Below are positions 23,171 to 64,000 of a stretch of DNA of 64,000 nt, in pieces (positions within the stretch are counted from its first letter, which is position 1; every line of letters begins with the position of its first letter). Source of the DNA: Eledone cirrhosa (taxonomy: Eukaryota); the NCBI GenBank assembly GCA_964016885.1, contig OZ024741.1, forward strand, positions 351,106,001 to 351,170,000, written 5' to 3'. The translations under genes and the position numbers were made by a program. The notes beneath the pieces were generated by a model. It saw nothing but the letters and a program-made list of their open reading frames with translations, ran no database searches and was not told where the DNA came from.

Positions 23171-24890
23171 ACCTATGTAACAAAAATTTTTTTTATCTGT
23201 TCCTGGCTTGTAATCACTTTTCTTGTGTTGCTTAGGTCCCAAATAAATTAAAAAAAAGTGCTATTAAACAGTTAAAAGTTTGGGTTTGTAAAAATTCTAA
23301 GCTATTCACTAGAATTATTTGTATGCTGGATTTTACGTTGTATGTAAGTTTAATTTGCTTATGTTAAATGATTTTTTTATATATGTTTCAGGTTAAATTA
23401 TAAAATAAAGAGTAATACCTAAAGAAAATTATAAAAGTGCAATAAAGTATAAAATTGTTAAAAAGTAGATTAAAGAGATTTATTGATACTGGATTTTCGC
23501 ACCCTGAATAAAGGGTAATTTGTGTTTTAAGCATTCGTCTCCAGGATGTAGCAGTGGAACTTGGTCAAGGAGGAAGTGCAGGTGAGAAGTCGACACAAAC
23601 CTTTCTCAGGCTTTTACACTCTTAGGAATGGCCTCTGCTTCTGCCATGACGTGCCTGGACTGTTTGACGTTATTGGGTGTCGTTTGTGCCCAAGGAGTGG
23701 CGGCTATCTATAGACAGCTCCACCACAAGTTTGAAGGCTGTCCTCCTCCACAATGGAAACAAGTTCCCTACACTGCCCCTTGCTCATTCAGTCTGCCTGA
23801 AGGAAGATTACTACATTGTGAAAGTCCTCTTGGAAGCTTTGCAATACAACCAGTACAATTGGGAAATCATTGGAGACTTCAAGATGGTGGCTTTCCTGCT
23901 TGGACTCCAAGGAGGCTTTATCAAATTCCAATGCTTCCTCTGCCTCTGGGACAGCAGAGCCACCTCTGACCACTACAAAAGAAAGAACTGGGAGCAGCGA
24001 ACAGAATTTGTAGTTGGGACCCGGAACGTCATGTGGGAGCCACTGGTTGATCCCAGGATTGTGCTCATGCCGCCACTGCACATTAAGTTGGGGTTGATGA
24101 AGCAGTTTGTGAAGGCTCTCAACCAAGAATCAGCCACTTTTAAGTACCTTCTTGAGTTCTTCCCCAAGTTATCTGAGGCCAAAATCAAAGGTGGAATTTT
24201 TGTTGGACCTCAGATAATGAAAATGTTTGAGTCTACCGAGTTCTCCAATAAGCTCAATAGGATTGAGAGAACAGCATGGAACTGTTTCAAAGCAGTTGTT
24301 AAGGGCTTCCTGGGCAACTACAGAGCTGAAAACTACCAGCAACTGGTGCAGGATCTGATAAAGGCTTTTGGCGCCATGGGATGCAGGATGTCGCTTAAAC
24401 TCCATATGCTGGACACTCATCTGGAAAAATTCAAGGACAATATGGGCACCTACTCAGAAGAACAAGGCGAACGATTCCACCAAGATGTGAAAGAGATAGA
24501 GCAGAGGTACCAGGGCCACTACAATGAAAAAATGATGGGGGATTATATCTGGGGGCTAGTGCGGGAATGCGACCTGGACTACAACCGCAAATCCAGGAAA
24601 TCCAGTCATTTCTGACGTGTATAAGTTGCTTTATAACTGTTATTTGTTTTTGCTTGTTTGCTTTTGATAAGCTTGTGTAATAAAATAAATATATATTCTG
24701 TTGATTTAATTATATGAACTGATAAATTTTAAAATGTGCTTTTTCTTGAAAAATATGAAAATTTCGAAATATCAAACTCCTGACCACAAACCCAAACTTC
24801 TGATTAAATAATAGTGGTTTTTATAATAATGGGATATAACAAACCATGAAATGACACTTAGAACCGGGGAACAAAAAAATATGTGTAATT
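23171..24890 (+). mobile_element. CMC/Chapaev3-type DNA transposon, internally deleted
   Basis: Left end cctatgtaacaaaaattttttttatctgttcctgg and right end aaatgacacttagaaccggggaacaaaaaaa (imperfect TIRs) flank the transposase C-half. Confidence 0.75.
23677..24615 (+). CDS. Chapaev3-like transposase, C-terminal part
   Basis: EWRLSIDSS...LKAVLLHNGN, GDFKMV, CFLCLWDSR, PPLHIKLGLMKQFVKAL, SLKLHMLDTH, SEEQGERFHQD. Confidence 0.85.
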   Translation: MSFVPKEWRLSIDSSTTSLKAVLLHNGNKFPTLPLAHSVCLKEDYYIVKVLLEALQYNQYNWEIIGDFKMVAFLLGLQGGFIKFQCFLCLWDSRATSDHYKRKNWEQRTEFVVGTRNVMWEPLVDPRIVLMPPLHIKLGLMKQFVKALNQESATFKYLLEFFPKLSEAKIKGGIFVGPQIMKMFESTEFSNKLNRIERTAWNCFKAVVKGFLGNYRAENYQQLVQDLIKAFGAMGCRMSLKLHMLDTHLEKFKDNMGTYSEEQGERFHQDVKEIEQRYQGHYNEKMMGDYIWGLVRECDLDYNRKSRKSSHF

Positions 24891-31319: not shown

Positions 31320-32678
31320 TGGAGCATCGGCGCCTATGCACCGTGTCTTATCGGACGATTAACATAAAATCGCGCCGAGTGGAACGGGCATCCGAGTCAC
31401 AAATCCAAAAAGCTTTGGGACATGTGTGGGCAAAAAAAACCCCACATCAGACGTGGGCAGAAATATGGAACCGTGGACGTGTTCTTTGAAACACCACAGG
31501 AGGCCAGAGAACACTCCATGGCCCCATTAAGAAGTGACGACTTCACACTCGTCCTAAGCTATTGTGGCCAGAGACTCGTGAAGATCAGGGTGACCCACGT
31601 TCCACCGGCCATCGAAATTCCCTGGCTAATAGCTGCCGTCCTCGCCGGCATCGAAGCCAACACCAAGATAATCAAAATAGCGAAAGAAAAGCAGGAGAAC
31701 TGGTCCGGATCTGGGATGGAGCTCCTGATCCAAGCGGACCAAAAAAGCATTGAGGAGATCCCAGAGGTAATAGACCTCACTGACGGCAGCCACCTCACCG
31801 TAATCGTCGAGGGCAGAAGGCCTAGGTGTGTCGTTTGTGGGGAAGGAACCCACCTAAGGGCTTTCTGCCCTCAGGCTAAAAGGTTGAGGCCACCTCTCTT
31901 ACCCACCCCAGTGACTCAACCATCAACACCACCAGCAGCAGAGATGGCAGCAACAACTGTAGCAGCAACAACAGAAGCAACTGTAACAGCAACAACCCCA
32001 GCAATAGTAGCAAAACCAACACCACCACCACCCAACGCGCCAGAACTAGCACCAGCGCCTACACCATCCACCACGCCACAACCAAAACCAACGCCTGTGA
32101 AGGATTTTCCACTCCCCGGCCTATCACAACTGGAGACAGATTGTGACGACGAGGAGTGGGAAACGGTATCAGGAAAAAAGGAAAAAAGAAACCAAAAAAG
32201 AAAAAATTCTCTTCCCTCCCCCTCCAAAAACAAAATACAGAGGGAAACAAATAAACTATCAAACAAAAAAGTTAGGACAGATATGCCACCATCCACACCA
32301 GCATCACCAACACCATCACCATCATTAACCCCAACACCACCATCACCAACACCACAAAAGTCACCAAAAAGCGAAACAGAAACAAACCCACAACAAACGC
32401 AAACAAAACAAAACAACCAAAACGATACACACTACACAGCATTAAATTTGAACAACAACCAATTATTACACTACATCCAACACAACACCAGCATCACAGA
32501 AAAATACTACACAACAACCCAAAAGTTCACACCACCTCCACACATACAAATCACTCGCATCACACAGAAAACGTACACGACACCAAAACAAAAATTCCCC
32601 AAAGACATCGGAGACTTCCGACAAGCACTCTCCAGGAGGATTTATAAGGACATCCTTCCGGAGGAGGCCACAAGCTAG
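31320..32678 (+). CDS. Tx1 ORF1 (gag-like; zinc knuckle and Pro/Thr-rich region), frameshifted at the 5' end
   Basis: VEGRRPRCVVCGEGTHLRAFCP (CX2CX4HX4C); EEWETVSGKK. Confidence 0.8.
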
Positions 32679-35600
32679 TGGCCGTCTATGCCCCGACAGG
32701 AGCAGGGCGGCCTGATTTCTTCCGGCGTCTGAAGACCTTTCTTGGAACGTCCCGCTCTTTAGTGTTAGTGGGCGACTGGAACGGGATCTTAGATGCACAC
32801 TGGGACTGTGTGGGATTAGCGGATAGGGAAGGAGGGTGCAAGAGCCTCACCAACCTGCTCAGACGTTTTGAACTGTCTGAGAGGTACCTAGTGGATTTCC
32901 CGAATGTGCCAATGTGGACTTGGACAAATCGCGTAGGGTCATCCAAATCATATCTAGATAGAGTATTTTGTAGGGAAATAGATAGGTCTAGCATAGGCTG
33001 TCCACAATTCAAGATAGTCAGCTACACGGACCACAAATTCGTGATCTGTGTGCTTGACTTAAATAGGCTTCATAGACGAGGACCCGGCTACTGGAAGCTA
33101 AACGCGTCCTTACCAGCGCGCAAGGCCTACAGAGACCGGATTAGTGAACTAGTTAAGCGGGCGCTGACGGGGGCCATCGTCAACAACAATTGGTGGTTTG
33201 CTCTGAAAAGAGCGATTAGAATAGAGTCCATTAGGTTTAGTAAGGCTTTAGCAATAGAGAAAAATAGAGCAGAGGGAGAACTAGTTAGAAAATTAGACGA
33301 GGCGCTTGCGGCGAAATTGGCCCTTGACCAATTCTTCAATGCAAAGCACGAAGGCTGCGTTGTCAGAGCTAGAGTGTGTGCTCTCAGACACGAGGGGACG
33401 AAAGCCGTTCAATGGGCCCGAGTGGCGGAGGCGCGTCGTGGCAACAAAGCCACGATCCGGTCTTTGGTGGACCACGACGGGCGCATGCTACTCGATCCCG
33501 GGCAAATGTGTGAAGCTTTTCAGCGACACTTCGCACAGCTGTTCGGGGTCAGCGGCGAGCCTGATCGAGGGATGGACTTTAGTGTCTACCTCGACGGACT
33601 GCCGCAGATCTCAGCCACTGAGGTGGTGTGTTGCGAAAAGCCGATAATAGCTGCTGAAGTACGGGAGGCAATGACTGGCTGCACAAGGGGTAAATCGCCT
33701 GGTTTGGATGGTCTGTCCTATGAACTTTACGTACAGATGCCAGACTTCTTCGGAAGCCTCTTGGCAACAGAACGGGAGAATTCAACTGGCAACAGAACAG
33801 GAGAATTCCCAGCTCTGTGAGTCGAGGAGCTGTGGCGCTGCTGAGAAAGAATCTGAACAAGGGGGATAACATAGATAATTTCAGGCCCATAACTCTGCTA
33901 AACACAGAGTTCAAGATTTTGGCCAAGGTGCTAACAAAGAGGTTGGCGCTTGTCGTTGGTGGTCTGGTGGGAGAGGCGCAGACATGCGCCATTGCCGACA
34001 GATCCATCCACGACAACCTCCACCTCATGCGATACATCGTAGAGAGGGTAGCTAGGGAACCTGGCACGGGTGGGTCCTTGATTAATTTAGATCAGTCGAA
34101 AGCTTTCGATAGGGTCGACCATCGTTACCTAGCGGCAGTCCTTAGGGCAGCTGGCTTTGGGCCCGTCTTCAGAGGCTGGATCGCTGCCATGCACAGCGAC
34201 ATCTGCTCTGTGGTGAGAGTGAACGGTCACCTTTCGGAACCGTTCAACATCATGCGCTCGGTCCGCCAAGGATGTCCCCTCTCGTCCCCCTTGTACGTAT
34301 TGACTCTCGAGCCATTACTGTACAAACTGGAGACGTTGAGGGGGGTCCCGTGCGAACTAGGATGCGGAAGATCCGTGTCAGCATATGCGGACGATGTCAC
34401 CGTAGTGGTGTCGAACGCCAAACACATCGAGGTGATCGGCACTACACTAAGAGAATACGAAGTGGTGACAGGTGCAATGATCAACCAGGAAAAGTCAGTG
34501 GGCCTGCAGCTTGGCACCTGGAGAGGCAGGTCCATGCCGTCCAACAGCGTCATCAGGCGCTGGACGGACGGACCGGGTAAATTGCTAGGGGTCTGGTTCG
34601 GTCCGGACCTCCAGACGGACAAAAACTGGGACGAGGTGACGAGCAGGGTGGCTTCTCTCACCCAGAAATGGGCGGAGAGGAAGCTATCCCTGAAAGGTCG
34701 AGCAGAGGTGGCTAACGCGTACATCGCGTCCGTCATCTACTACCGCCTGACCGTTGTACCTTGTCCTAAGCCCCGCCTGACTGCGCTGGAGCGTTTGCTC
34801 TTTCGCTTTTTGTGGAAGGGACGCGCTCCGATGGTCAGGCGGTCCATCTGCTGTCAACACCCGCTACGTGGAGGGCTGGACATGCCGTGGCTGATGATGC
34901 GCAGACACGCGCTCAGGCTACGACATCTCCACCTCTTCCTCGACGGTGATCAGGTGTGGTCGCCGTTTGCTAGACACGTCTTTCCCCAGCTCGTCTCCTT
35001 GACGGAGCTGAAGTCCTGGGTCAAGCGAAGACCGAGAGGGAGCGCTTGGAGACTGGAATGTCTTCAGGTGCTCACAGCCCTCGACCAATCGGGCAATGTG
35101 ATCGGTGGAAACTCCACCTTGGCGTTCTATAGAGGATTAGTGGAGGGGAAGAGCGACGACGTACTTGGAGAAACTCTAGGCGTCGACGAAAATCAACTAG
35201 CCAATCTCTTAGGAAGGACTTTCGGGCCGCGGCCTATGGACAACTTCCATAAATCCCTGGCCTGGCAGTGCTAACGAGGAGCTTTGCCAGTTCGGGATAA
35301 ACTCTACAGACATGGAGGTGCCGTCACCCGGGCATGTCCGAGATGCGCGCAGGGCGACGAAACCGTCCTGCACGCACTCGTCCAGTGTCCGAGCATTGCT
35401 GACTTGTGGGTTTATGTCGAACACCTGCTGTCATGTGTAGGACGGATCCAGCTATCAGCTGAGTCCATCGTGAGGATTGCCCCACCCTTTTCCTTTAGCC
35501 GGGAAGGGCAGGCAGTTTTTATCTGTTTGGTGGCCATGGCGAAAGAGATAGTATGGTGGACACGTTTGAAAGGGCTGAAGACGAGCACTTACCTCTTCGG

Positions 35601-35718
35601 TGATGCCCTGATTAACTTTTTCAAATTTCATTTGAAAAGGAAAATCAGGGTAGAGAGGGAAGTGCTCTCTTCCCAGCATTTTGTTGAAAGATGGGTGAGA
35701 GAAGCAAGTATGGCCTGA
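32678..35718 (+). pseudogene. Tx1 ORF2 (EN-RT-zf), disrupted
   Basis: VYAP, GDWN, SYLDR, TDH, GYWKLN, KSPGLDG, FRPITLLN, LDQSKAFDRVDH, VRQGCPLS, AYADDV; frameshift ~33790, stop at 35272, EN N-terminus missing. Confidence 0.9.
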
Positions 35719-43958: not shown

Positions 43959-44427
43959 CATGCGTGTCTATGTGTGTGTGTGTGTCTGTGTCTGTGTACC
44001 TATCTATGTATATATAAGGGATACAAATACTACTTTCTCACTGTCACCAAGCTTCTCAATTCATTCGTTGCTAAGTATTTTATTTTGCTACGAGGTATTT
44101 TATTTTGCAAGGTACTATTTTTCCCCTCAGTTTGTGATTTCAGAGAAAGGTAAGAAATTCTTCATATTTTGCATCGTTTGTATTTTGACTTTACAGTTTG
44201 AATTGTAGAATTGTTTATCCAATCAAAATATTACAGCAGCTAACAGTGAAATATAGAATTAAAAAAAAAGCTTTTTCAACTGAAATCAAGTCTTTGAGAA
44301 CATTGACGTCTATTTTTCAAAAAATATATAATTTGAAATAGTTTGCTTTTGTTTTGGACTGAAACTTTTTTTGTATTTAATTCGTACGGGTATTTTTTAA
44401 AGATCTTTTTAAAAATTCTAATTTGAT

Positions 44428-45180
44428 TTGGCCCATTACGTGCACTGCGGCATTCATATTTCTCAACTTATTATAACTAAGTCCGTACAACAAGCTTCAC
44501 TTATCAAAAATGTTCTAGATTACGTGAATGAATTGCGGAAACTATATAGTACATCAGGGAAATTTAAGCACGCATATTTATCACAACATGATGAAGAAAA
44601 TGAAGTATCGTCACCACACTCCTTAAAACCTGTGTGCCCTACTCGATGGCTAACACGATTTTTCTGCAGTCAAAGCCCTTTTTGACAATTATTCAGATGC
44701 CCCTATTTCTTTACAAGCGGCAACAAATGAGTTTGGCACCAACATTGGATCCAGAGCTAATGTTATTCTTACGTGTCACTCTCCAGGCCAATGTGTTCTT
44801 GGATTGCACGTTGTAGTTCCATTACTTCAATTCCTTGAAGGATTGAACAGATCTTTTCAAAGTACCACCTTCAATCTAGGTAGCATGTTGCATAGTGTCA
44901 AACTGGTGCAGGAGGAGCTAAAAAATCTACGCAGTGAAGAAAAATTTCAGGAGCTGAAAAAATGATTTATCAACTCGATATTTCTCCTTTGGAGCTACCC
45001 AGACAACGAAAAGTTCCTAAAAGATACCAGGAAGCAAATGCGTTGAAATATCAACACTGCACTGCTTTGGATCATTACAGAGTGCAGTATTTGCAGGTAG
45101 TGGATATTGCAATATCAAATTTGAAAGATTATTTTTTTTCACAGGATTTAGCAGATTATGAAAAACTGAGCAATATTTTC
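44428..45180 (+). mobile_element. hAT transposase fragment (ZMYM1-like / Tip100-type)
   Basis: YVHCGIH, LKPVCPTRW, LELPRQRKVPKRY, HYRVQYLQVVDIAISNLKDYF. Confidence 0.7.
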
Positions 45181-46140
45181 CACCAAAACGAAATGCACGA
45201 GGAGCTTCTCTTCACTCTGAATCTAGCCACAGATACTAAAGGCATCTTTGAATCCATCAAGGGATACCTCGAAGAAAAAGAGATACCTCTTAACAATATT
45301 GTATCATGTGCTATGGACGGCGCAAGAGCAATGGTCGGCCAACATAAGGGTTTTGTCTCTCTTCTGAAGAGGGAAAATCCATCTGTATTTGCTGTTCATT
45401 GTGTCATTCATCGACAACACTTGACTGCGAAGAAACTCAGTGAGCCGCTGAGCAAGTCTTTGCAGGTAGCCATTGATGTCATCAATTATATCAATCGCCA
45501 TGCCCTCAATGAACGAATTTTCCGGCAACTGTGCGAAGATAATGATGAAGAATTCGTCGAGTTGCTCCTTCATACTGAAGTGAGGTGGCTTTCAAAGGGC
45601 AAGTGCCTTACTCACTTCTTTGAACTGTTCGACTCTATCATTGAGTTTTTTCGAGGACGCAACACAGAACTGTATAAAAAACCCTCAATGTGTGGCAAGA
45701 CTGCGCCTACCTCGCCGACATCTTCGACAAATGCAATAGCCTCATTATGGCTTTGCAGGGGGAGAAGATCACCTTGTTTAAAGCAAGGAATACTGTGAAA
45801 ATATTCCTGGCCAAATTGAAAGTCATCGAAAGGAATCTTTGTCGACAGGAATTCTATAATTTTCCTAGTGACGACAATGTTCAAAACATTGTGAGTGATG
45901 ATCAACTCCAAATTTATACCGCGCACCTCCGTGCACTACAAGACAACATGAGAGAACATTTGTCGACCTTTTGCAGATGGACATCCCAATGTGGATAGCA
46001 GATCCCTTCATAGCTAACGTCAACGATTTGGACGTTAAATTTCAGGAAGAATTAATTGAACTTCAGATAGATGACAATATCAAAATTAAATTTTCCAAAA
46101 TAGGTGAACCCCTTTTTTGGATGCAAGAGAAAATTCAGCG
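45181..46140 (+). mobile_element. hAT Charlie/Buster-type transposase fragment
   Basis: EELLF, SCAMDGARAMVG, HCVIHRQHL, LLHTEVRWLSKG, AYLADIF, QEELIELQ. Confidence 0.85.
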
Positions 46141-46534
46141 TCGCGGGATTTGAACTCAGACCACAAAGGGCCGTAACTCTATGCTGCAAAGCATGCCGTC
46201 TGACCATCTACCGATACTGCTAATCCACTGCATTTTTCACTAATAATATGCAAATTAATACGTCCATTTCAGGATACTACTATAAATGATAAGATATATA
46301 AGCCCCGCAACTATGTATCTCCTTGTGGTTGATTAGAGGATATAAATGCCTCCTGATGAAATCCCAACTTGGTTCGAAAACCAGTTAAAGGTATCATTTT
46401 TTCAATTTAAAGACAACTACGTATATTTGGCATACTTACAAGTCTATAAACTAAAAATATGTAAATTTATATACACATTTATGCAGTCTCAGTTACTTCT
46501 ATTCTATTTTTATACAGATATAATTTGATTATAT

Positions 46535-54835: not shown

Positions 54836-55444
54836 TGTACGATGAGAATTCTGCTTTATAAATCACATATTTTCCCTGTTAAGCTTTCAATGTTGCATTG
54901 ACTGTGTTAGATTTTACATATTCATACATCAGATATTCTGTTAAATAGTGTGTGTTACATATTGCACATTATATGTTTAATCTTGTTATATATTGCATAT
55001 TATTAGGGCTGGTACTTGAGTATTTAGTGCCCCAGTCTAGCCCCAAAATGTGGGCCCTATCTCCCAAATAAAATAATTTCAACTTACAGTTTAGCAAGTT
55101 GATAAACCTACTTTTTGACAAGTCTTGCTCTGACCACACTACAAAGATTACTGAGCCTGCATTTTCTGCTACACAGTCCACACTCACCCATGACATTTCA
55201 TAGCATCATACAACCCTCTTCATCACTTTGGATATTTCCACAACACTGTTATGCAGCAAAGATGTCTATTGTTCACAGGAAATTGTTATATATTTAAGTT
55301 AATTATACGAATTTGTATAAAACTGTTATACTTTAAGATTCAGTAGTGCACTTCTTTGAGGTCTATGCCTTGGGCAGCTGCTTAGTTGGCCTTAATGGTA
55401 GTTCCAACCCAGACAATTTATGATACTTTTGTCACGTTACACCT

Positions 55445-55630
55445 ACACTATTACATACCAATCTGTCCATATGTTACTGTACTATTACATACCAATCTGT
55501 CCCCATGTTACTACATACTGATCTGTCCACACATTACTGCACTCTAATACTAAACTATCCACCTGTTACTACATACTACTCTGTCCACATGTTACTGCAC
55601 TACTAATACTAAACTGTCCACATGTTACAC
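55445..55630. repeat. Degenerate 25-33 bp minisatellite in the putative 3' UTR
   Basis: Repeated catgttactgcactattacataccaatctgtcca variants. Confidence 0.8.
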
Positions 55631-55723
55631 GTCTTCCATATTACATATTCTATGTTCCATCTTCATTTTAAAATCTTCCATGTTAAGTCCTTAGAGAAAG
55701 AGTCCTCTCTCTAGTCAAGCTTG

Positions 55724-55837
55724 TCAAATTGGGGACATCCGATGGATAGTGGTCAGTTTGTTCAGCTCATTTCGCCATTTCTTTTCCTCTTTCTTCCATT
55801 TTTCTGATTCAGCACCAATAACCATCAAACGCAGCAT
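55724..55837 (-). CDS. Schlafen/AlbA_2-domain gene, terminal coding exon (MLRLMVIGAESEKWKKEEKKWRNELNKLTTIHRMSPI*)
   Basis: Acceptor tttaccacAG, phase 0 matching the previous exon; charged helical tail; TGA at 55724-55726. Confidence 0.7.
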   Translation of the reverse strand: MLRLMVIGAESEKWKKEEKKWRNELNKLTTIHRMSPI

Positions 55838-56261
55838 CTGTGGTAAAGTTTAACAAAATATATTAATTTGTTTGAAGCATCATCACCATCATAATTGTAT
55901 TCAGTTTATTCATTATAACAGGCAAAACCTACATAAAAAATAAAAGAAGAATAGAAGTCGGCCATCAGAATATTATCTGCCTGTTGCAACTCCTACCAGA
56001 AGTATCACCACTTTTATGAGGAGATAACATTTGAACTCAGAACATACAGAACCGAAACAGATGCCACAGAGCATCACAATCAACTCTGCCAATCCAACAC
56101 CAATTGGCTGCTACATTATTTATCAACCCTCAGAGTGCAGAGATCCAGAACAAATACAAAATAATTTAACTCCTAACATCCTGCAATGATTTACTAGAAA
56201 ATCTCTAAAGATTGGTTAGTTAATTTAGATGGTTATAGCATCTCTACTAGTAGATACATCA

Positions 56262-56800
56262 TCATCATCATTTTATGTTTGCTTTTTCATGATTGCAAGA
56301 GTTGGCCGAGCTTTTTCCAACATTCCTTCACTCATCAGTCCTTTATCATCTCTATGAGATTCTGTGATTTGAGATCAGTTCTCACAACCTCTGTTCAGGT
56401 CTTCTTTGGTCTCCCTCTACTGTGACTTCCCCACACTGGGATTTCTTGGAACCTCTGTTATGGCCTGGAGAACAATAATAAACAGGAGTCGGCTGAGGGC
56501 AAAGCCCTGATGAGCACCTACCTGCACATTGAATTCCCTACTAAACTTTACTGACAGCTTCTCCGTACATGGCTTGCACTGCTCTCATCAGCTACTCTCC
56601 TATGCTTAGTGTTCTTAGGGACCACCAGATGACAGATCGAGATATTTGTCAAAGGCCTTTTCCAGATCAACAAAGAGCTTACACTTAGCTAGGAACTTCT
56701 TTTGTAGTAGTTGTCATCTAAACAAGAGGGCATCTGTGGTGCACCACCCTTGCATAAAGCCAAACTACATCTCATCTAATTTGACTCTTATAACTACAGG
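56262..56800 (-). mobile_element. Fragmented RTE LINE in intron
   Basis: Remnants of VDLEKAFD and VGAHQG.ALS.LLF; (GAT)n tail. Confidence 0.7.
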
Positions 56801-57074
56801 GCAAAGAAACTCCGCTACAAATACAGTTAGAAGATATACAATTAATAAATAAGAAAGGTCATCAACATATTGTCTGAAAATAAACATACCACCAGATATG
56901 CACTGATGGGCATTTGACTGAATATCTACAGATACATAACACTATAAACACAATGTAAATTTGCAATAGTAGGTTCTTTCAAAAGATAAATGAATTGTAT
57001 TTGATCTTGGAACTGTTCAATAACAACTTTCTCCGAGATAAAACTATAATAGGTAACATACAATGAGCCTGTCT

Positions 57075-57600
57075 CTGATATATGTCTATAGTGACTCTTT
57101 TACTTCTTCCCACATCCTGGATGCTGTGGTTAGAGCAAGAGCCACAGCCAAATGGAACAAAATCCTAAAACACCGTGATCTGTCGGCCAACTACATTTTC
57201 CAGCCTGTGGCGTTTGAGACATTTGGGGGAGTTGGGTTACTGACTGCGAGATTCCTATCTTCATTGGCGGCTCACCCAACAGAAGTAACTGGTGAAGCTT
57301 GTGAAGGCGCTTGGTTGTTCAAGCGTATCAGCCTCGCCATCACCCGAAGTAATGCCACGAGCGAACTGGCTTGACTAAAAAATTATTAGAGGGCTTTCCC
57401 AGTGCTCTTTGCAATACTGTTATCTTTTACTCTGGTAGCAGTTCGTTTGTCTACCCCTTTCGCTGATGTGGTCCCAGATGTGTGTGCTCCTGTGTTTTTT
57501 TGTTTTTTTCTTTTCTCTTTCTTTTTTGTTTTGTTTTCCCTTTCCTTTATATTATTTGTTTGAGCTTTCGTTCTGTAAGCATTGTATTATTATATTTCTT
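57075..57600 (+). mobile_element. CRE-clade (restriction-like endonuclease) retrotransposon 3' fragment
   Basis: K..KHRDLSANYIFQPVAFETFGG.G....RFL..LA....EVTG...E..WLFKRISLAITRSNA. Confidence 0.75.
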
Positions 57601-57724
57601 TTTATACAACAGTGAATTACAAATCGTAGTGTCAGTATAAGATATGACCCAAGGAATCTAAAGTTTGTAATTGCCTCAGATGTGTTACACTTATAAGTGT
57701 CTCCCATTATTTGTAACCTATCTC

Positions 57725-57912
57725 GGGCGGTGAATTGGCAGTATCGGTAGAGCGTCAGACACCATGCTTTACAGCATAGAGTTATGGCCCGTTACGTTCT
57801 GAGTTCAAATCCCGCCGAGGTTAACTTTGCCTTTCATCCTTACGGGGTCGATAAAATAAAGTACCAGTAATGCTCTGGGATAATTGCTGGCCTTGTGCCA
57901 AAAGAAGAAACA
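57725..57912 (+). mobile_element. Full-length tRNA-derived SINE (Meta/MESC-like core) with 19-bp TSD
   Basis: A box tggcagtatcggtag, B box gagttcaaatcc; TSD attatttgtaacctatctc at 57706-57724 and 57913-57931. Confidence 0.95.
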
Positions 57913-58064
57913 ATTATTTGTAACCTATCTCAGATTGATAGTTGAATGAAGCTCTATCGAATTTACTTATCAACATTTTTAGAGCTTATGTGTCTTAATG
58001 GCGATCTGATTGCTGCTTCAAACACATCATTTTACCATATACTGGAAAAGCACAGTCAAACATT

Positions 58065-58763
58065 CTAGGGCAGGTAAAATTCCTGAGATCCATGGACGAG
58101 TTCTCTCCAGCGGTCTCTGTCCCTCATTATCGCTGCCATGTCCTGCGTCTCCAACAGACCAGTGTCTGTCCTTAGGGCATCAACATACATTAACCTTGGT
58201 CTTCCTCTTCCAGTGTGTCCATGTAGGGGCTCCCACAGGAGCACTGAGTGCAATGTCAACTCTGGATGTTGGTGAGCATGTCCAGCTAACCTCAATCTCC
58301 TCTGTGTCACTTTTGAGTTGACTTTTGGGAGGCTCCCATACAGCTCTGAGTTTTTCATCTTCAGTGTATACTGATTAATGTTCAGAGCCATCCTCAGCAT
58401 TCTCGTATAGCACCCATCCACCATCTGAGTGAGTTTCTTGGTCAGTGTCCAAGTCTCAGACACGTACAGCAGCACAGACTCCACTACAGCAATGAAGAGG
58501 TGGATTTTCAGGTCTTTACGAAGGTCCGACTTCCACACCGATCTCAAGCTGTGGCACGCCGCCCAGGCTTTGCTCTTCCTCTCAAACACATCATCTTCCG
58601 TATTCCCAATCTTTGCTCCCAAATACAGGAAGTCCTCAACCAATTCTAGCAGCTTCCCGCCTACATTAGTGATCCCCTCTGGCTTCTCACCATTTTCTAC
58701 CAGATATTTTGTTTGAATCTCATTCATTCTCAGCCCCACACTCATCGACACAGAACCATACAA
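58065..58763 (-). mobile_element. RTE-X-like LINE 3' fragment
   Basis: VEDFLYLG, KSKAWAAC, VESVLLY..ETWTLT, DGCYTRMLRMAL, RRLRLAGH. Confidence 0.85.
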
Positions 58764-59673
58764 CTATTTCAGTACACAGTCAAACATGTGTGCTAGTAAA
58801 TATAGGTGTTTAGACATATCTATGTATAGATATATATTTGACTGCTTAACCTCACTGCTTTCTTTTTTAAGGGTTGGACAGTGTATGTATATATGTACTT
58901 ATATATTTGTGTGTGTGTGCTTGTATATATGGGTTAGTGACCCATATCTAGTTATATATCATACTTGGCTGCTTGATAGTGACTACCAGAGCAAGCAGCC
59001 TGCTGTTTCTCACACTATGAGAGAGAATCTATAAATATTTAGTTAAAATCTATATTAAAGTCTTAGTAAAACATTTATTTTCACACAGACCTTTAGAAAT
59101 AAAGTGTAGAATAGGAAAATTGATTTGGACTTGTACTTGGTACAATTGATGCAGAAATTGTGGCTCACCAAACAGAAAATTTGTAAATTTATGACACTAT
59201 GAAGGAAACACACCACAAAAGACAAATAACTACGTGGAAAAAATCAAATCCTTGGAGAACAAATTTACAATGTATCCAGTTTTGTCACATCCTGGCTCAC
59301 TTATTTACTAAAACTTTTACTCTTTATCCCAATTAGATCATCATCAGAACAAATTTCTCAGTTTAAAAGTTTACTTGTATAATTTATTTTAGTTGATCAA
59401 TAGTAATTTTTTAGAAAAAAAATAATAACCGATTTATAATAATGCTACTAGTAATAAGTAATATTATTCAAGTTATGCTTAAATAGATTGGTTTAACAAT
59501 TAAACCAATCTATTTCCCTCTGGACTGGTACCCCATTTATTGATGAAATGCAAATTTGGATATGGTGCAATAAGATAAAACAAATACGGAAGTATTTAAT
59601 CTAATGTTCTAATAACTCCAATTCACACATTTACTATGAACAGAACCTGGATTAGAAAGAAACTATAACAGAC

Positions 59674-59765
59674 CTCAGCATCAACAAGTTGTGTTGCATC
59701 ATCTTGCCGAAAATATGACTTGCCCTTAAAAGAATAGAAAATGTCCTGTGCAAATGTGGAGATTT
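59674..59765 (-). CDS. Schlafen/AlbA_2-domain gene exon (E-ISTFAQDIFYSFKGKSYFRQDDATQLVDAE)
   Basis: Acceptor ttttcttttgtcacAG, phase 1 in and 0 out; resembles the AlbA_2 C-terminal 'VIEI...Y...GK.Y.R..' segment; donor GTCTGT is weak. Confidence 0.75.
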
Positions 59766-62006
59766 CTGTGACAAAAGAAAACAAAAAATAACATTTTGAT
59801 GGTTATTACAGTTAAAACTTGGTGGAGAAAGAAATATTTTACAGTGTTAATCTCAACTTGAAAGATTAAACAATTTTTCAATATTTATATCTATTAAGAC
59901 GACAGCTGCATAAAGAAATGCAAAGCACTCGAAGTTGATGGAACCTATGGAAGGGGAAAATCTAGGAGTACTTGGGATGACATGGTGAAGACTCACCTTA
60001 TACAGCTGAATCACCTCATGAAGGAGATGATACAGGATTAAGTAGACTGGTGATATGCTGTAGCACAGAAGACTCACTTTCCCACACAAGCGTGATGAAA
60101 GGTGCATAGAGAAGATGGTCCCCACCTTAATCCTGAAGAAGTAGAGGGATGGAACATTTAGGTCCCTGGCTGCCAGGATACCCCCAGATTTCCCTACTTT
60201 AATCTCCACCTTACTCCTCCTCCATCTCACACTCTTCTTCCTTGTCCAACCCATTCTAGCATGGAAAGTCCGAGTGAACGTTCCCTGCCCAACCCCTTAC
60301 ACTCATATCCCAAACTTACCTAACCTGTCAACCTCTTGCCAACATGGAAAACCATTCACATCCCATAATATAACACCAGACACTATTCACTTACTTCAAG
60401 ACCAACTGCATTACTCGTGCCTTCCTCTGCCATTGCAGAATAACCCACCCCAACTCCGGCAAGCAGCATATAGCCCCTCCCCTCATCAATACTTCTCCAC
60501 TCTAGTCAAGGACATAATTAACACCTAGTGTTATAATGAGGTAGTGCTGCTGCTACAATAAAAAGCTCTATCCATACTGTAAGAATGGTAGTACTGGTGC
60601 CATGATAAAAAGCACCTTGTCCACCCTGTAAGGTGATAGTGCTGAAATCATAGTAAAATGATTCCAGTACATGCTGTAAAGTAGTTGGCATTATGAAGGA
60701 TATCCAACCATAGAAAACCAAGTCAAATATGGATCATATAAGCAAGACATAGTCACTTGACTTGTCTAGCCTCATAATGTGTCAGTCTAACTCATGCAAG
60801 TAGGGAAAATGCTGCTGATGATGAAGAAACAGGCACAGATATGGCCAGGTAGTTAAGTTCGGATTACAATCATGTGAATTTGGGTTTGATTTCACTGCAT
60901 AGCATTTTAGGCGTCCAGTTTATCAATTTGGTCGATGCGAAACTGTGCAGAAGCCCATCATATATCTATATATGTGTGTATAAGTGTTTGTATTTATGAA
61001 TATCTTTATGTTGACATTTCTTAAACAACTGGTTTCATGGGTGAAGATCTGTGGAATAAGTACCATTCTTAAAAATAAGGGTTGGTGTATAATTTAAAAT
61101 ATATTTAATCTTTTAAGGTGACATTAATATCCACCTTTCCCCAATTATAATCTTATTAATAACTTATCTCAGCTATATAAATATCTAAAGAAACATATTT
61201 CTTTCTTAAAACAAAAGAATATTTTTTTTATATCATTTAACTTGCTAGAAGTAGCTTCCAAATTTCCTCAGATCACACACTAATGTTTTAAAAAAGGTGA
61301 CATCTAAGATTACATTGTAAAATCAGTAGTATTAGATAGATGACGTCTGAAAAAAATGGTGGATATAGCTAGAACACTTTCCATCATCACTCAGGACTAA
61401 CTTTGGTGTGTAAACAACACTATACACTATTATCAAACAGCAACACAAATGTTTTAAGGCCATTTTCCTTGGATAAACTTTGTGGACCCCAAAACAGACT
61501 TCATACGCATCATGGGGTTCCTTCTGAGGCAGTTTTACAGCCAGATGCCTTTCCTGGTACTAACCCTTTCATATACAGGAATATGGTGTCATCATCATCA
61601 CTGTTGTTTTAACATCTACTTTCCCTGCTAGCAAGGGTTGGACAGTTCTACATAGACCAAGTACTGAAGCAGAGACACAGATCTTCCAAGCAAGCCAGGG
61701 ATCTGTCTCGCTTTCTGTATGGTCAACACTCCACAAAATGCACAGGAGAGGTTGTCATGCCTTTGACACAACTGAGGGTCCTCCCAACCCTTTTGTTTGG
61801 CAAAACTTTTATGGCTGGATGCCCTTCCTACCACCAACCAGATTACAGTATCTACTGAGTGCGTTCATCATCTAGATCACCAACACTGAGGAGGTTGTCA
61901 TGTCCTTGACACAACAGAAGGATCCTCCTGACTCTTTGTTTGGCAAACTTTATATAGCTGGATGCCCTTCCAACTAAACCAGATAAATACAACTGTAAAT
62001 GCTTAC

Positions 62007-62213
62007 CAATGACATGTAGATTTGAATGCATTTTCTTAGCATCAACAACTAACTTGAAGTTTACATCTATGTTATGTATAACGAGAGGTTTCATCAACTG
62101 AGTAAAGATCTGGTCACAATGTAAACGAAAAGTGTCTTTTTGTTCTCGTGATAAAGTCACACCAATCACTTCATAGCTGTCACTGATTCCGAAATACAAT
62201 GTACAATTTCTTT
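62007..62213 (-). CDS. Schlafen/AlbA_2-domain gene exon (Q-RNCTLYFGISDSYEVIGVTLSREQKDTFRL...LHVI)
   Basis: Acceptor ttttctacAG, donor G|GTAAGC, 207 nt phase 1/1; TLYFGISD..V.G is the AlbA_2 core. Confidence 0.85.
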
Positions 62214-62859
62214 CTGTAGAAAATATATATATATAAGAGTGATTGGTATTTATATACATGTTAGTGAGTAATAGGTTTACTAGGTAGCAAATATATATTT
62301 TATTATTGTTTTTTAACACTTACAAAGGAGTTTTTGTAAGGGACAACAATGATGATGATGATGATAATAATAATAATAACTCCACCACAGTTGCTGCCTC
62401 AGTGATAGCTGGAACAGGCAACAGCAGAAACAACAACAAAAACAACTAAAAGGCCAGGAAGGGGTCTTTAGCCTAGGTTAGTGACCTTCCTAATGATAGT
62501 ATGATAGTGTCCACAATAAAAGCACTGGTAGTTGTGCAACCTTATAAACGCAATTCTCATGAAAATGTTCTTACTCTGGCTATCTCACTTTCAGGACATC
62601 CTCTCCAACAACTTCTAGAGAGTTTCCCTTGCAGCTGAAGGAATCAATTTCATGTGTGCTGATGCTAGTGTTGGTGCCAAAATAAAACGCACTCAGTCAA
62701 GTACAGGGTTGTATGTCAAGCCCCCAGCCCACCTGGACGTCTGAGGCTCTGCCTGAGTAATGACTGATGTGTGATGACATGTCCAACAATTGCTAGCAAC
62801 AAAAAACGGACGTTAAACAATGATGATCATCATCATCATTATATATATATATGAATATA

Positions 62860-63150
62860 TGACGCATGGCTTAGTGTTGGGCATGCAATCGTGAGGTTGT
62901 GAGTTTTATTCCCGGACCGAGCGATGTGTTATTTCACATTGTCCAGTTTACTCAGCTGTAGAAATGAGTTGTGATGTTACTGGTGTCAAGCTGTATCAAC
63001 CTTTGCCTTTCCATTGGACAACATTGGTGGCAGGGAGAGGGGAGACTGGTATGCATGGGTGACTGTTTTCTACAAACAACCTTGCCTGGACTTGTGCCTT
63101 TAGGTCCAAATCCCATGGTCATTCGTGACCAAAGGAGGTCTTTACCCAAA
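62860..63150 (+). mobile_element. tRNA-derived CORE-type SINE
   Basis: gacgcatggcttagtg...gtgagttttattcccggaccg...ttatttcacattgtccagtttactcagctg. Confidence 0.65.
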
Positions 63151-63464
63151 ATATATATCATCATCATCACTTTTACGTCCATTTTTCCATGATTGCATGG
63201 GTTGGATGGGTCCTTCTCAGCACGGCATCTTTCCACTTGTAACATTTCTTTGTCATCTCCCCTGTGAGTCTCATTGATTTGAGGTCAGCTCTCACAACCT
63301 CTGCCCAGGTCTTTCTTAGTCTACCTCTACTGTGGCTTCCTTCCACTGGCATTTCCTGGCACTTCGTCACACAATGATCATCATCCGTATGCAAATAAAT
63401 AGATGGATACATAAGGATAAACAGGTAAGTAGATAAAGAGTATGAGAATAAATGTATAGCTTAC

Positions 63465-63572
63465 GGCAATTTAACATTCCACACACTGTTTTACCAATAT
63501 CAGTCACCTGATTTCTTTTCTCTACAGGGAGAATTGCATGAGTTGCATCTTTAATGAAAGGCACTGTGGCAC
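63465..63572 (-). CDS. Schlafen/AlbA_2-domain gene exon (ATVPFIKDATHAILPVEKRNQVTDIGKTVCGMLNC)
   Basis: Acceptor aaacttccAG, donor C|GTAAGC, 108 nt phase 1/1; IGKTVCGMLN matches the AlbA_2 'K.vcAflN' helix; upstream exons lie beyond the window. Confidence 0.8.
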
Positions 63573-64000
63573 CTGGAAGTTTGATGAAAATTATTAGATA
63601 CAGGCATGTATTGACTAAAGAACACTAATTTGTAAGGAGTAAATAAACTTAACATACTGCAAAATGGTTAGCGATTGAACAGAGACATATAGGGTTGAGC
63701 GGACTTTCAAGTCTGGCTGAACATATTATAACCTCTCTAGTGCTGCACCCAGTATATTGTCAGGTGATTGGCTTATAAAGGGCATTCAGTTGTAGAAACC
63801 ATGCCAAATATGGAACATAGTCTTAGACAATGACAACTTGTCCAACACTTGCCAGCACAGAGAGCAGATATAAAATTATGATAAAGATGATGAAGTCATG
63901 CAAATGTTTAAATTTAAGAAAAAACACACACAATAGATACAGAAACATAAAAGGCAGAAAAGAGTGGAAAATGATGTGTTAAATAAATAAAATATATACT

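Follow-up and report, generated by a model that had tools for sequence, protein, structure and literature searches.

Near the end of a 64,000-nucleotide stretch of Eledone cirrhosa DNA (contig OZ024741.1, forward-strand positions 351,106,001 to 351,170,000; hereafter the window), the minus strand carries the last four of the eleven coding exons of an orthologue of Octopus bimaculoides LOC106871329. The encoded protein of 540 amino acids (aa) is made, in order, of an ARM solenoid, a linker, a Schlafen AlbA_2 domain and a C-terminal helix. The alignments support reading this Schlafen domain as a pseudo-nuclease and a member of an ancient family. Structure prediction suggests that the protein belongs to a two-chain Schlafen RNase as its non-catalytic partner, joined by the C-terminal helix to the intact single-Schlafen protein of contig C24, and we regard this reading as an even call.

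The exons and the key motif positions are listed below. Exons 1-7 were placed from the 120 kb flank by tblastn and splice-site inspection; they are numbered in window positions continued past 64000, so that the place on the contig is 351106000 plus the number.

73500-73044, minus strand: exon 1, bearing the ATG; ARM solenoid
72221-72051, minus strand: exon 2; ARM solenoid
70710-70573, minus strand: exon 3; ARM solenoid
69399-69267, minus strand: exon 4; ARM solenoid
67931-67859, minus strand: exon 5; linker
65896-65824, minus strand: exon 6, 73 nucleotides (nt); linker
64060-64004, minus strand: exon 7; strand preceding the motif
63465-63572, minus strand: coding exon 8 of 11, phase 1 to 1; first AlbA_2 strands and the degenerate motif
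63552-63550, minus strand: K375, in exon 8, where active Schlafens have the first motif glutamate
63537-63535, minus strand: A380, in exon 8, where active Schlafens have the second motif glutamate
63531-63529, minus strand: L382, in exon 8, where active Schlafens have the motif lysine
62007-62213, minus strand: coding exon 9, 207 nt, phase 1 to 1; AlbA_2 core
62181-62179, minus strand: D415, in exon 9, the aspartate following the core strand and the sole tetrad site retained
59674-59765, minus strand: coding exon 10, phase 1 to 0; final AlbA_2 strands and part of the predicted partner interface
55724-55837, minus strand: coding exon 11, phase 0; C-terminal helix, predicted to form a coiled coil with the intact paralogue
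55726-55724, minus strand: stop codon TGA, the end of exon 11

Joined, the eleven exons give a frame of 540 codons without internal stop, and all introns are GT-AG. An earlier note on this DNA had proposed the four exons within the window, and its coordinates, splice ends and phases agree with ours: exons 8-11 all have AG acceptors, the first three also have GT donors, and the phases of entry are 1-1-1-0. In local BLOSUM62 comparisons with the C-terminal part of the O. bimaculoides orthologue, each of them scores 114-274, against a background best of 43 among 1057 stop-free segments from window positions 1-55000 compared in the same way. The upstream exons that the note expected to be recoverable are the seven found beyond the window's end. 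Its peptide, which stopped after ELNKL, was misread: the coordinate itself was right, and the last exon runs nine further residues to the TGA. Nor is the gene hidden, since O. bimaculoides, O. vulgaris and Argonauta hians already have annotated orthologues, labelled as uncharacterised proteins. Exon 9 as a query retrieves LOC106871329 and the O. vulgaris orthologue, and the full protein adds Argonauta. Protein identity is about 70% to both Octopus orthologues and 52% to Argonauta (computed with an earlier exon 6/7 boundary); to O. bimaculoides it is 72% for the AlbA_2 domain with its tail and 68% for the N-terminal part, so that the degenerate domain is itself conserved.

Two RefSeq isoforms of the O. 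bimaculoides orthologue each drop one exon: X2 lacks exactly exon 3 (46 aa), and X3 lacks exactly exon 9 (69 aa, or 207 nt), skipped in frame. The AlbA_2 core is thereby removed from isoform X3, which keeps the ARM region and the terminal helix. A 534-aa relative is found whole on contigs of at most 2.4 kb, which is consistent with spliced mRNA. All four window exons are also covered by contigs of the runs X1-X3, from one sample that is possibly the assembly's own, with no differing letters in the listed pieces; none of their listed joints falls at an exon end. No RNA run is listed for the stretch, and neither result bears on expression. At exon 7, two AG acceptors lie 4 nt apart (64060 and 64056). 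A first exon 6/7 boundary, with 89 nt and the acceptor at 64056, was dropped because 73 nt and the acceptor at 64060 have a better donor and fit the orthologue's junction residues. A further acceptor at 73513 sits 13 nt upstream of the ATG, and a stop codon in frame separates the two, implying a non-coding first exon that was not located.

A degenerate Schlafen domain behind an ARM solenoid

The AlbA_2 identity proposed in the earlier note is borne out by the orthologues, which score 42.9, 41.6, 44.9 and 28.2 bits against PF04326, above the curated cut-off of 25.3, with one such stretch in each protein scanned; exon 9 on its own reaches 18.7 bits (E 0.0026), below that cut-off. The AlphaFold2 model of the O. 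bimaculoides orthologue has a mean predicted local distance difference test (pLDDT) of 85, with a low-confidence linker. Its Schlafen domain lies mostly at 86-97, and the best fold matches of that domain (Foldseek) are SAMD9 and SLFN5/11/12/13/14. The N-terminal half, missed by the note, is an ARM solenoid: residues 10-287 of the octopod model align with ARM proteins over 249 residues (VIA Z 23.0, root-mean-square deviation (rmsd) 2.7; the VIA results bear on the ARM part, not on the Schlafen or Tudor parts). A family ARM profile gives 59-99 bits on all four cephalopod N-termini examined and at most 6.1 on shuffled sequences, the only control. The C-terminal helix is 40 residues long and has hydrophobic residues in heptads; of the 20 residues in its middle, 12 are charged. 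The charged ending described before is present, then; what had been overlooked is that this heptad helix is shared with an intact paralogue and forms the predicted dimer interface.

In place of the ExxxxExK motif of active Schlafens, the protein has K-x4-A-x-L (K375, A380, L382). In a profile-profile alignment of this family with the intact one, no gap falls in the motif (probability 99.9, E 5e-35). The strand leading into the motif comes from exon 7 and contributes no acid in register, which answers the note's concern that an upstream exon might supply the catalytic residues. The catalytic tetrad is intact in none of the five cephalopod proteins, among which the sites vary, and in none of 33 counted Tudor-bearing relatives. 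These 33 rows are what remains of the 40 matches that carry a Tudor insert once 5 near-duplicates, and 2 rows with a gap at one of the sites, are removed; lysine and aspartate are each found in 0/33, and the second glutamate, lost in the cephalopod gene, is kept in 25/33. Among the other matches of the family search, 62/102 have an intact tetrad. In SLFN14, cleavage is abolished by changing E to Q or K to R in ExxxxExK (PMC12215978). The earlier proposal of a catalytically dead domain is supported by these observations.

The wider family and the intact paralogue

A profile search of 1.84 billion representatives returned 179 matches, of which the best 150 were examined. The best non-cephalopod matches are mostly uncharacterised proteins of 750-1100 aa with Tudor, ARM and AlbA_2 matches (28 proteins scanned). 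Twenty of the matches were looked up by name, and the species named are bivalves, gastropods, chiton, amphioxus, hemichordate, annelid, tick, locust and sponge. The range, which the earlier note had put as molluscan, is therefore animal-wide, from sponge to amphioxus; the sponge protein (P0033) is counted in because of its AlbA_2 domain and its place in the tree, and it has no Tudor match. In a Haliotis model the ARM solenoid spans residues 5-488 while only about 240 residues align (VIA Z 25.3, rmsd 2.4), which shows the Tudor module to be an insertion. This insert of about 220 aa matches PF00567 and extended-Tudor structures, and a profile built on it finds the 40 carriers. Its cage is degenerate by comparison with Tudor domains that read methyl-arginine: among the 19 of 25 relatives with a core match (2 of the matches possibly spurious), 0/19 are aromatic at one cage site and 0/19 have Asn, at positions that we take to correspond to those of SMN.

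The cephalopod gene has no insert at the corresponding place, which falls within exon 1, after residue 130 and before residue 131. No Tudor module was found in the 184 kb of window and flank (best E 2.2), and a low-sensitivity search with a relative (P0013) as query found no Tudor-bearing second copy in the genome. A tree of the ARM and AlbA_2 parts (29 rows) nests the cephalopods in a mollusc-rich clade with support of 88/98, on a long stem. That stem measures 1.3-1.5 changes per column both here and in a tree of the AlbA_2 domain alone, which disagrees by placing the cephalopods outside the family. In a quick 141-row tree, degenerate rows group with degenerate and intact with intact (8 changes, versus 46 when shuffled), a result of little weight because it includes the catalytic columns.

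In P0008 (residues 119-334) and its relatives, the insert itself seems to be circularly permuted. What closes canonical extended Tudors seems to precede the first strands here, and the tandem Tudor structure 4q5y aligns with the insert over 228 columns, against 117-138 for single Tudors. Three longer degenerate AlbA_2 proteins of 990-1361 aa (P0069, P0142 and P0154), two with the Tudor insert, sit on a branch of their own and are possibly a second dead subfamily.

One other AlbA_2 gene was found in the Eledone genome, with its motif intact:

L014:1423-2226, contig C24: intact single-Schlafen gene

The count is a floor, as the same search missed the exon-split gene studied here. A search with P0025 as query found no SLFNL1-like gene in the genome, and only the C24 gene matched. 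The family of this paralogue has 36 matches, the named ones from sponge, coral, brachiopod, annelid, molluscs and amphioxus, and it keeps the tetrad in 34/35 aligned rows. The dead and intact families thus have a similar sponge-to-amphioxus range, and both have named members in O. bimaculoides, Argonauta, Mercenaria, Mya, Branchiostoma and the genus Haliotis. Two members of the intact family are labelled 'schlafen-like protein 2' by NCBI, a name proposed for TOFU-2 (PMC10567574) and presumably the origin of the label. Invariant H38, H99, H160 and C168-W-C170 (P0167 numbering) in the intact family are a possible zinc site. In its tree the octopod-holding branch has a longish stem (0.58), too weak a basis for claiming co-evolution.

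When residues 345-542 of the O. bimaculoides orthologue are folded together with the paralogue in ESMFold2, the pair scores 0.75, against 0.15 for the best of three controls. The runs agree in at least 97% of contacts, and the partner has a pLDDT of 85. In calibration, the score mark was reached by 51/78 solved and 2/108 mismatched microbial pairs, and by 39/65 novel solved and 2/126 unrelated eukaryotic pairs. The predicted interface consists of a parallel coiled coil of the two C-terminal helices and a strand region. Its residues are identical in the window protein at 24/28 sites, compared with 68/100 over residues 436-535, and in the C24 paralogue at 26/33.

Weighing a proposed two-chain nuclease

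In the literature consulted, Schlafen nucleases built from several single-fold chains have been shown only for nematode PUCH, whose authors speculate that others exist; there TOFU-1, without catalytic residues, binds active TOFU-2 and contacts the extended Tudor domain of TOFU-6, which has a degenerate cage (PMC10567574). Like the proteins described here, those of the C. elegans complex (TOFU-1/SLFL-1, TOFU-2/SLFL-2 and SLFL-3/4) have one Schlafen fold per chain and include both catalytic and non-catalytic chains. The substrates of PUCH are capped piRNA precursors with U at position 3. The Tudor domain with its degenerate cage is linked in trans through TOFU-6 in the worm PUCH/PETISCO system and is fused in the non-cephalopod relatives described here. 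Unlike PUCH, the present system has an ARM solenoid and a predicted coiled-coil dimer, and the third PUCH subunit is membrane-anchored whereas the tail here is charged and not transmembrane. No match in the family profile search, most of whose matches are unnamed, was identified as a TOFU protein. The best solved match, both by sequence (E 0.004) and by fold (Foldseek E 2e-5), is the AlbA_2 tRNase of SAMD9/SAMD9L, from which the protein differs in having A and L at the E196 and K198 sites and in lacking SAM, SIR2, P-loop, TPR or OB parts; in place of a STAND architecture it has ARM and AlbA_2 parts only. Vertebrate SLFN5/11/12/13/14 share the fold (Foldseek E 1.4e-4 to 3.3e-4). In these proteins two folds join to form the nuclease (PMC10567574), whereas the gene here has a single fold, has lost ExxxxExK and has no helicase part.

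Vertebrate SLFNL1 likewise has a single C-terminal AlbA_2 domain and a long helix, and it is the best Atlas match (template-modelling score 0.84, residues 350-540). SLFNL1 reportedly retains the catalytic residues (bioRxiv 10.1101/2024.01.12.575368), and no ARM region is among the families listed for its Atlas cluster. Orthology with SLFNL1 was rejected because the catalytic residues and the N-terminus differ. The Tudor insert of the relatives matches structures of the extended-Tudor proteins of the PIWI-interacting RNA (piRNA) pathway (TDRD1, TDRD2/Papi, Tudor and Spindle-E). In the present gene it is absent; in the relatives it interrupts the ARM solenoid and has a degenerate cage.

The two-chain reading can be laid out as follows. 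The helix coiled coil and strand contact would set two Schlafen folds side by side, as the active and inactive folds are in TOFU-2/TOFU-1. The intact paralogue would be the cutting chain, and the dead chain would stabilise it and shape or aim the RNA cleft. The ARM solenoid, with the Tudor domain outside cephalopods, would anchor the pair to a protein partner, and the most plausible setting for this is a germline small-RNA pathway. A piRNA or germline small-RNA role can only be inferred, by analogy, from the relatives' Tudor module and PUCH. The earlier suggestion of a partner subunit now draws on the predicted heterodimer and the shared taxonomic range, its two lines of support, and has to contend with an interface that is pseudo-symmetric.

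Several further points weigh against the two-chain reading. The modelled pair is made of O. bimaculoides proteins rather than those of Eledone, the controls were unrelated proteins rather than other Schlafens or coiled coils, no custom alignments were used, and close cousins of true partners also passed in 10/12 calibration cases. Because the two helices are paralogous and in register, which makes the interface pseudo-symmetric, either protein paired with itself might reach a similar score; dimers are seen in crystals of SAMD9 domains too (PMC12331169), and the model may show a homodimer mode common to the whole family. The helix charges are not clearly complementary, with means of -1.5 and +0.2, and both are +2 in Eledone. 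PUCH needs a third subunit, and none was found, one other AlbA_2 gene being the lower-bound count for the genome. The 36 paralogue-family matches (one search, some matches unnamed) include no named tick or insect, though the dead family is present there. The Tudor module that carries the piRNA argument is missing in cephalopods, and the AlbA-only tree (50 rows) leaves the cephalopods outside the Tudor family, itself supported at 99/93.

Much of this would suit a protein that works without the paralogue, as a stand-alone or homodimeric scaffold: the dead domain would bind RNA or dimerise with itself through the helix, the ARM region would recruit others, and the paralogue would work separately. 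The pseudo-symmetric interface, the unclear charge complementarity, the missing ticks and locusts in that one search of the paralogue family, and the location of the two genes on separate contigs (C2 and C24) all agree with a scaffold. The heterodimer scores 0.60 above the best control, however, and the dead and intact families are common to the sponge-to-amphioxus range; we give the scaffold a modest probability. The same predicted interface could instead serve a brake, in which the dead protein holds a potentially toxic intact Schlafen RNase off until an ARM-sensed signal of innate immunity or stress, with tRNA cleavage like that of SAMD9 or SLFN11. The nearest solved folds are indeed the SAMD9 tRNase and SLFN11-14, and isolated AlbA_2 domains can be toxic, as in Avs9 (PMC12680541). 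But the Tudor domains of the relatives point to germline RNA pathways, and the partner's motif residues (28-36 and 83) are all missing from the listed interface, so that the site would not be blocked directly; we consider the brake unlikely.

The remaining alternatives concern the dead domain itself. Its aspartates D376, D392 and D415 might bind metal in a non-canonical way and leave an active nuclease. D376 is widely kept (5/5 cephalopods and 28/33 Tudor-family rows), and D392 and D415 align with E218 and D241 of SAMD9 (alignment numbering counted by hand). Yet SAMD9 requires E184, E196, E218 and D241 as well as K198 (PMC10246899), and A380 and L382 stand at the places of its E196 and K198. 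D415 is N in 2/5 cephalopods and D in 0/33 Tudor-family rows, the motif lysine is lost in all 38 rows (5 cephalopod and 33 Tudor-family), and D376 is likely structural because the intact family keeps it too. Such a rebuilt site is thus very improbable. It is harder still to credit a cephalopod gene that is a relic drifting since the loss of its Tudor module. The long stem branch, the missing Tudor module and the loss of the second glutamate kept by 25 of the 33 relatives would fit such decay; against it stand 540 stop-free codons across 11 exons, identities of 52-70% to other octopods, and the 534-aa relative whole on contigs no longer than 2.4 kb, as a spliced mRNA would be.

Surroundings of the gene and meaning for the family

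The last intron of the gene holds, at 57696-57982, an extremely high-copy short element that is apparently like a short interspersed element, with a summed contig depth of about 7 million, versus about 15-90 in the exon bins. The same intron contains a 232-aa frame (58065-58763, minus strand) that we take to resemble the C-terminal part of an RTE-type long interspersed element (LINE) protein. Elsewhere in the window, a run of long frames at 31368-35718 (plus strand) resembles a LINE with first open reading frame, endonuclease and reverse transcriptase. The plus-strand frames at 23668-24615 and 44422-46153, the latter in several pieces, are presumably transposase-like. No tRNA gene was found in window positions 55000-64000.

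A wider proposal, which we offer tentatively as a doubtful extension, is that a PUCH-like nuclease is ancestral to animals. From sponges to amphioxus, a dead ARM-Tudor-Schlafen protein and an active single-Schlafen protein would form a coiled-coil dimer that cuts germline small-RNA precursors; the TOFU-6 Tudor domain and TOFU-1 of worms would be its split form, and cephalopods would have rewired it by deleting the Tudor module. Having lost that module, the cephalopod protein may have its role in a different pathway.

The Schlafen fold, pseudo-nuclease subunits and PUCH are already known. In the open full-text literature, outside subscription papers, we met no description of the ARM-Tudor-Schlafen family or of these octopus genes in the available portions; the tree files of PMC12680541 and the supplements of bioRxiv 10.1101/2024.01.12.575368 may include members. 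The analysis exposes an animal-wide architecture in which an ARM solenoid with an inserted Tudor module is joined to a dead Schlafen domain, and the pseudo-nuclease family stands even if the pair is not real. The analysis also provides a named, testable candidate pair outside nematodes, with conserved dead and intact subunits and a predicted interface, in tractable animals.

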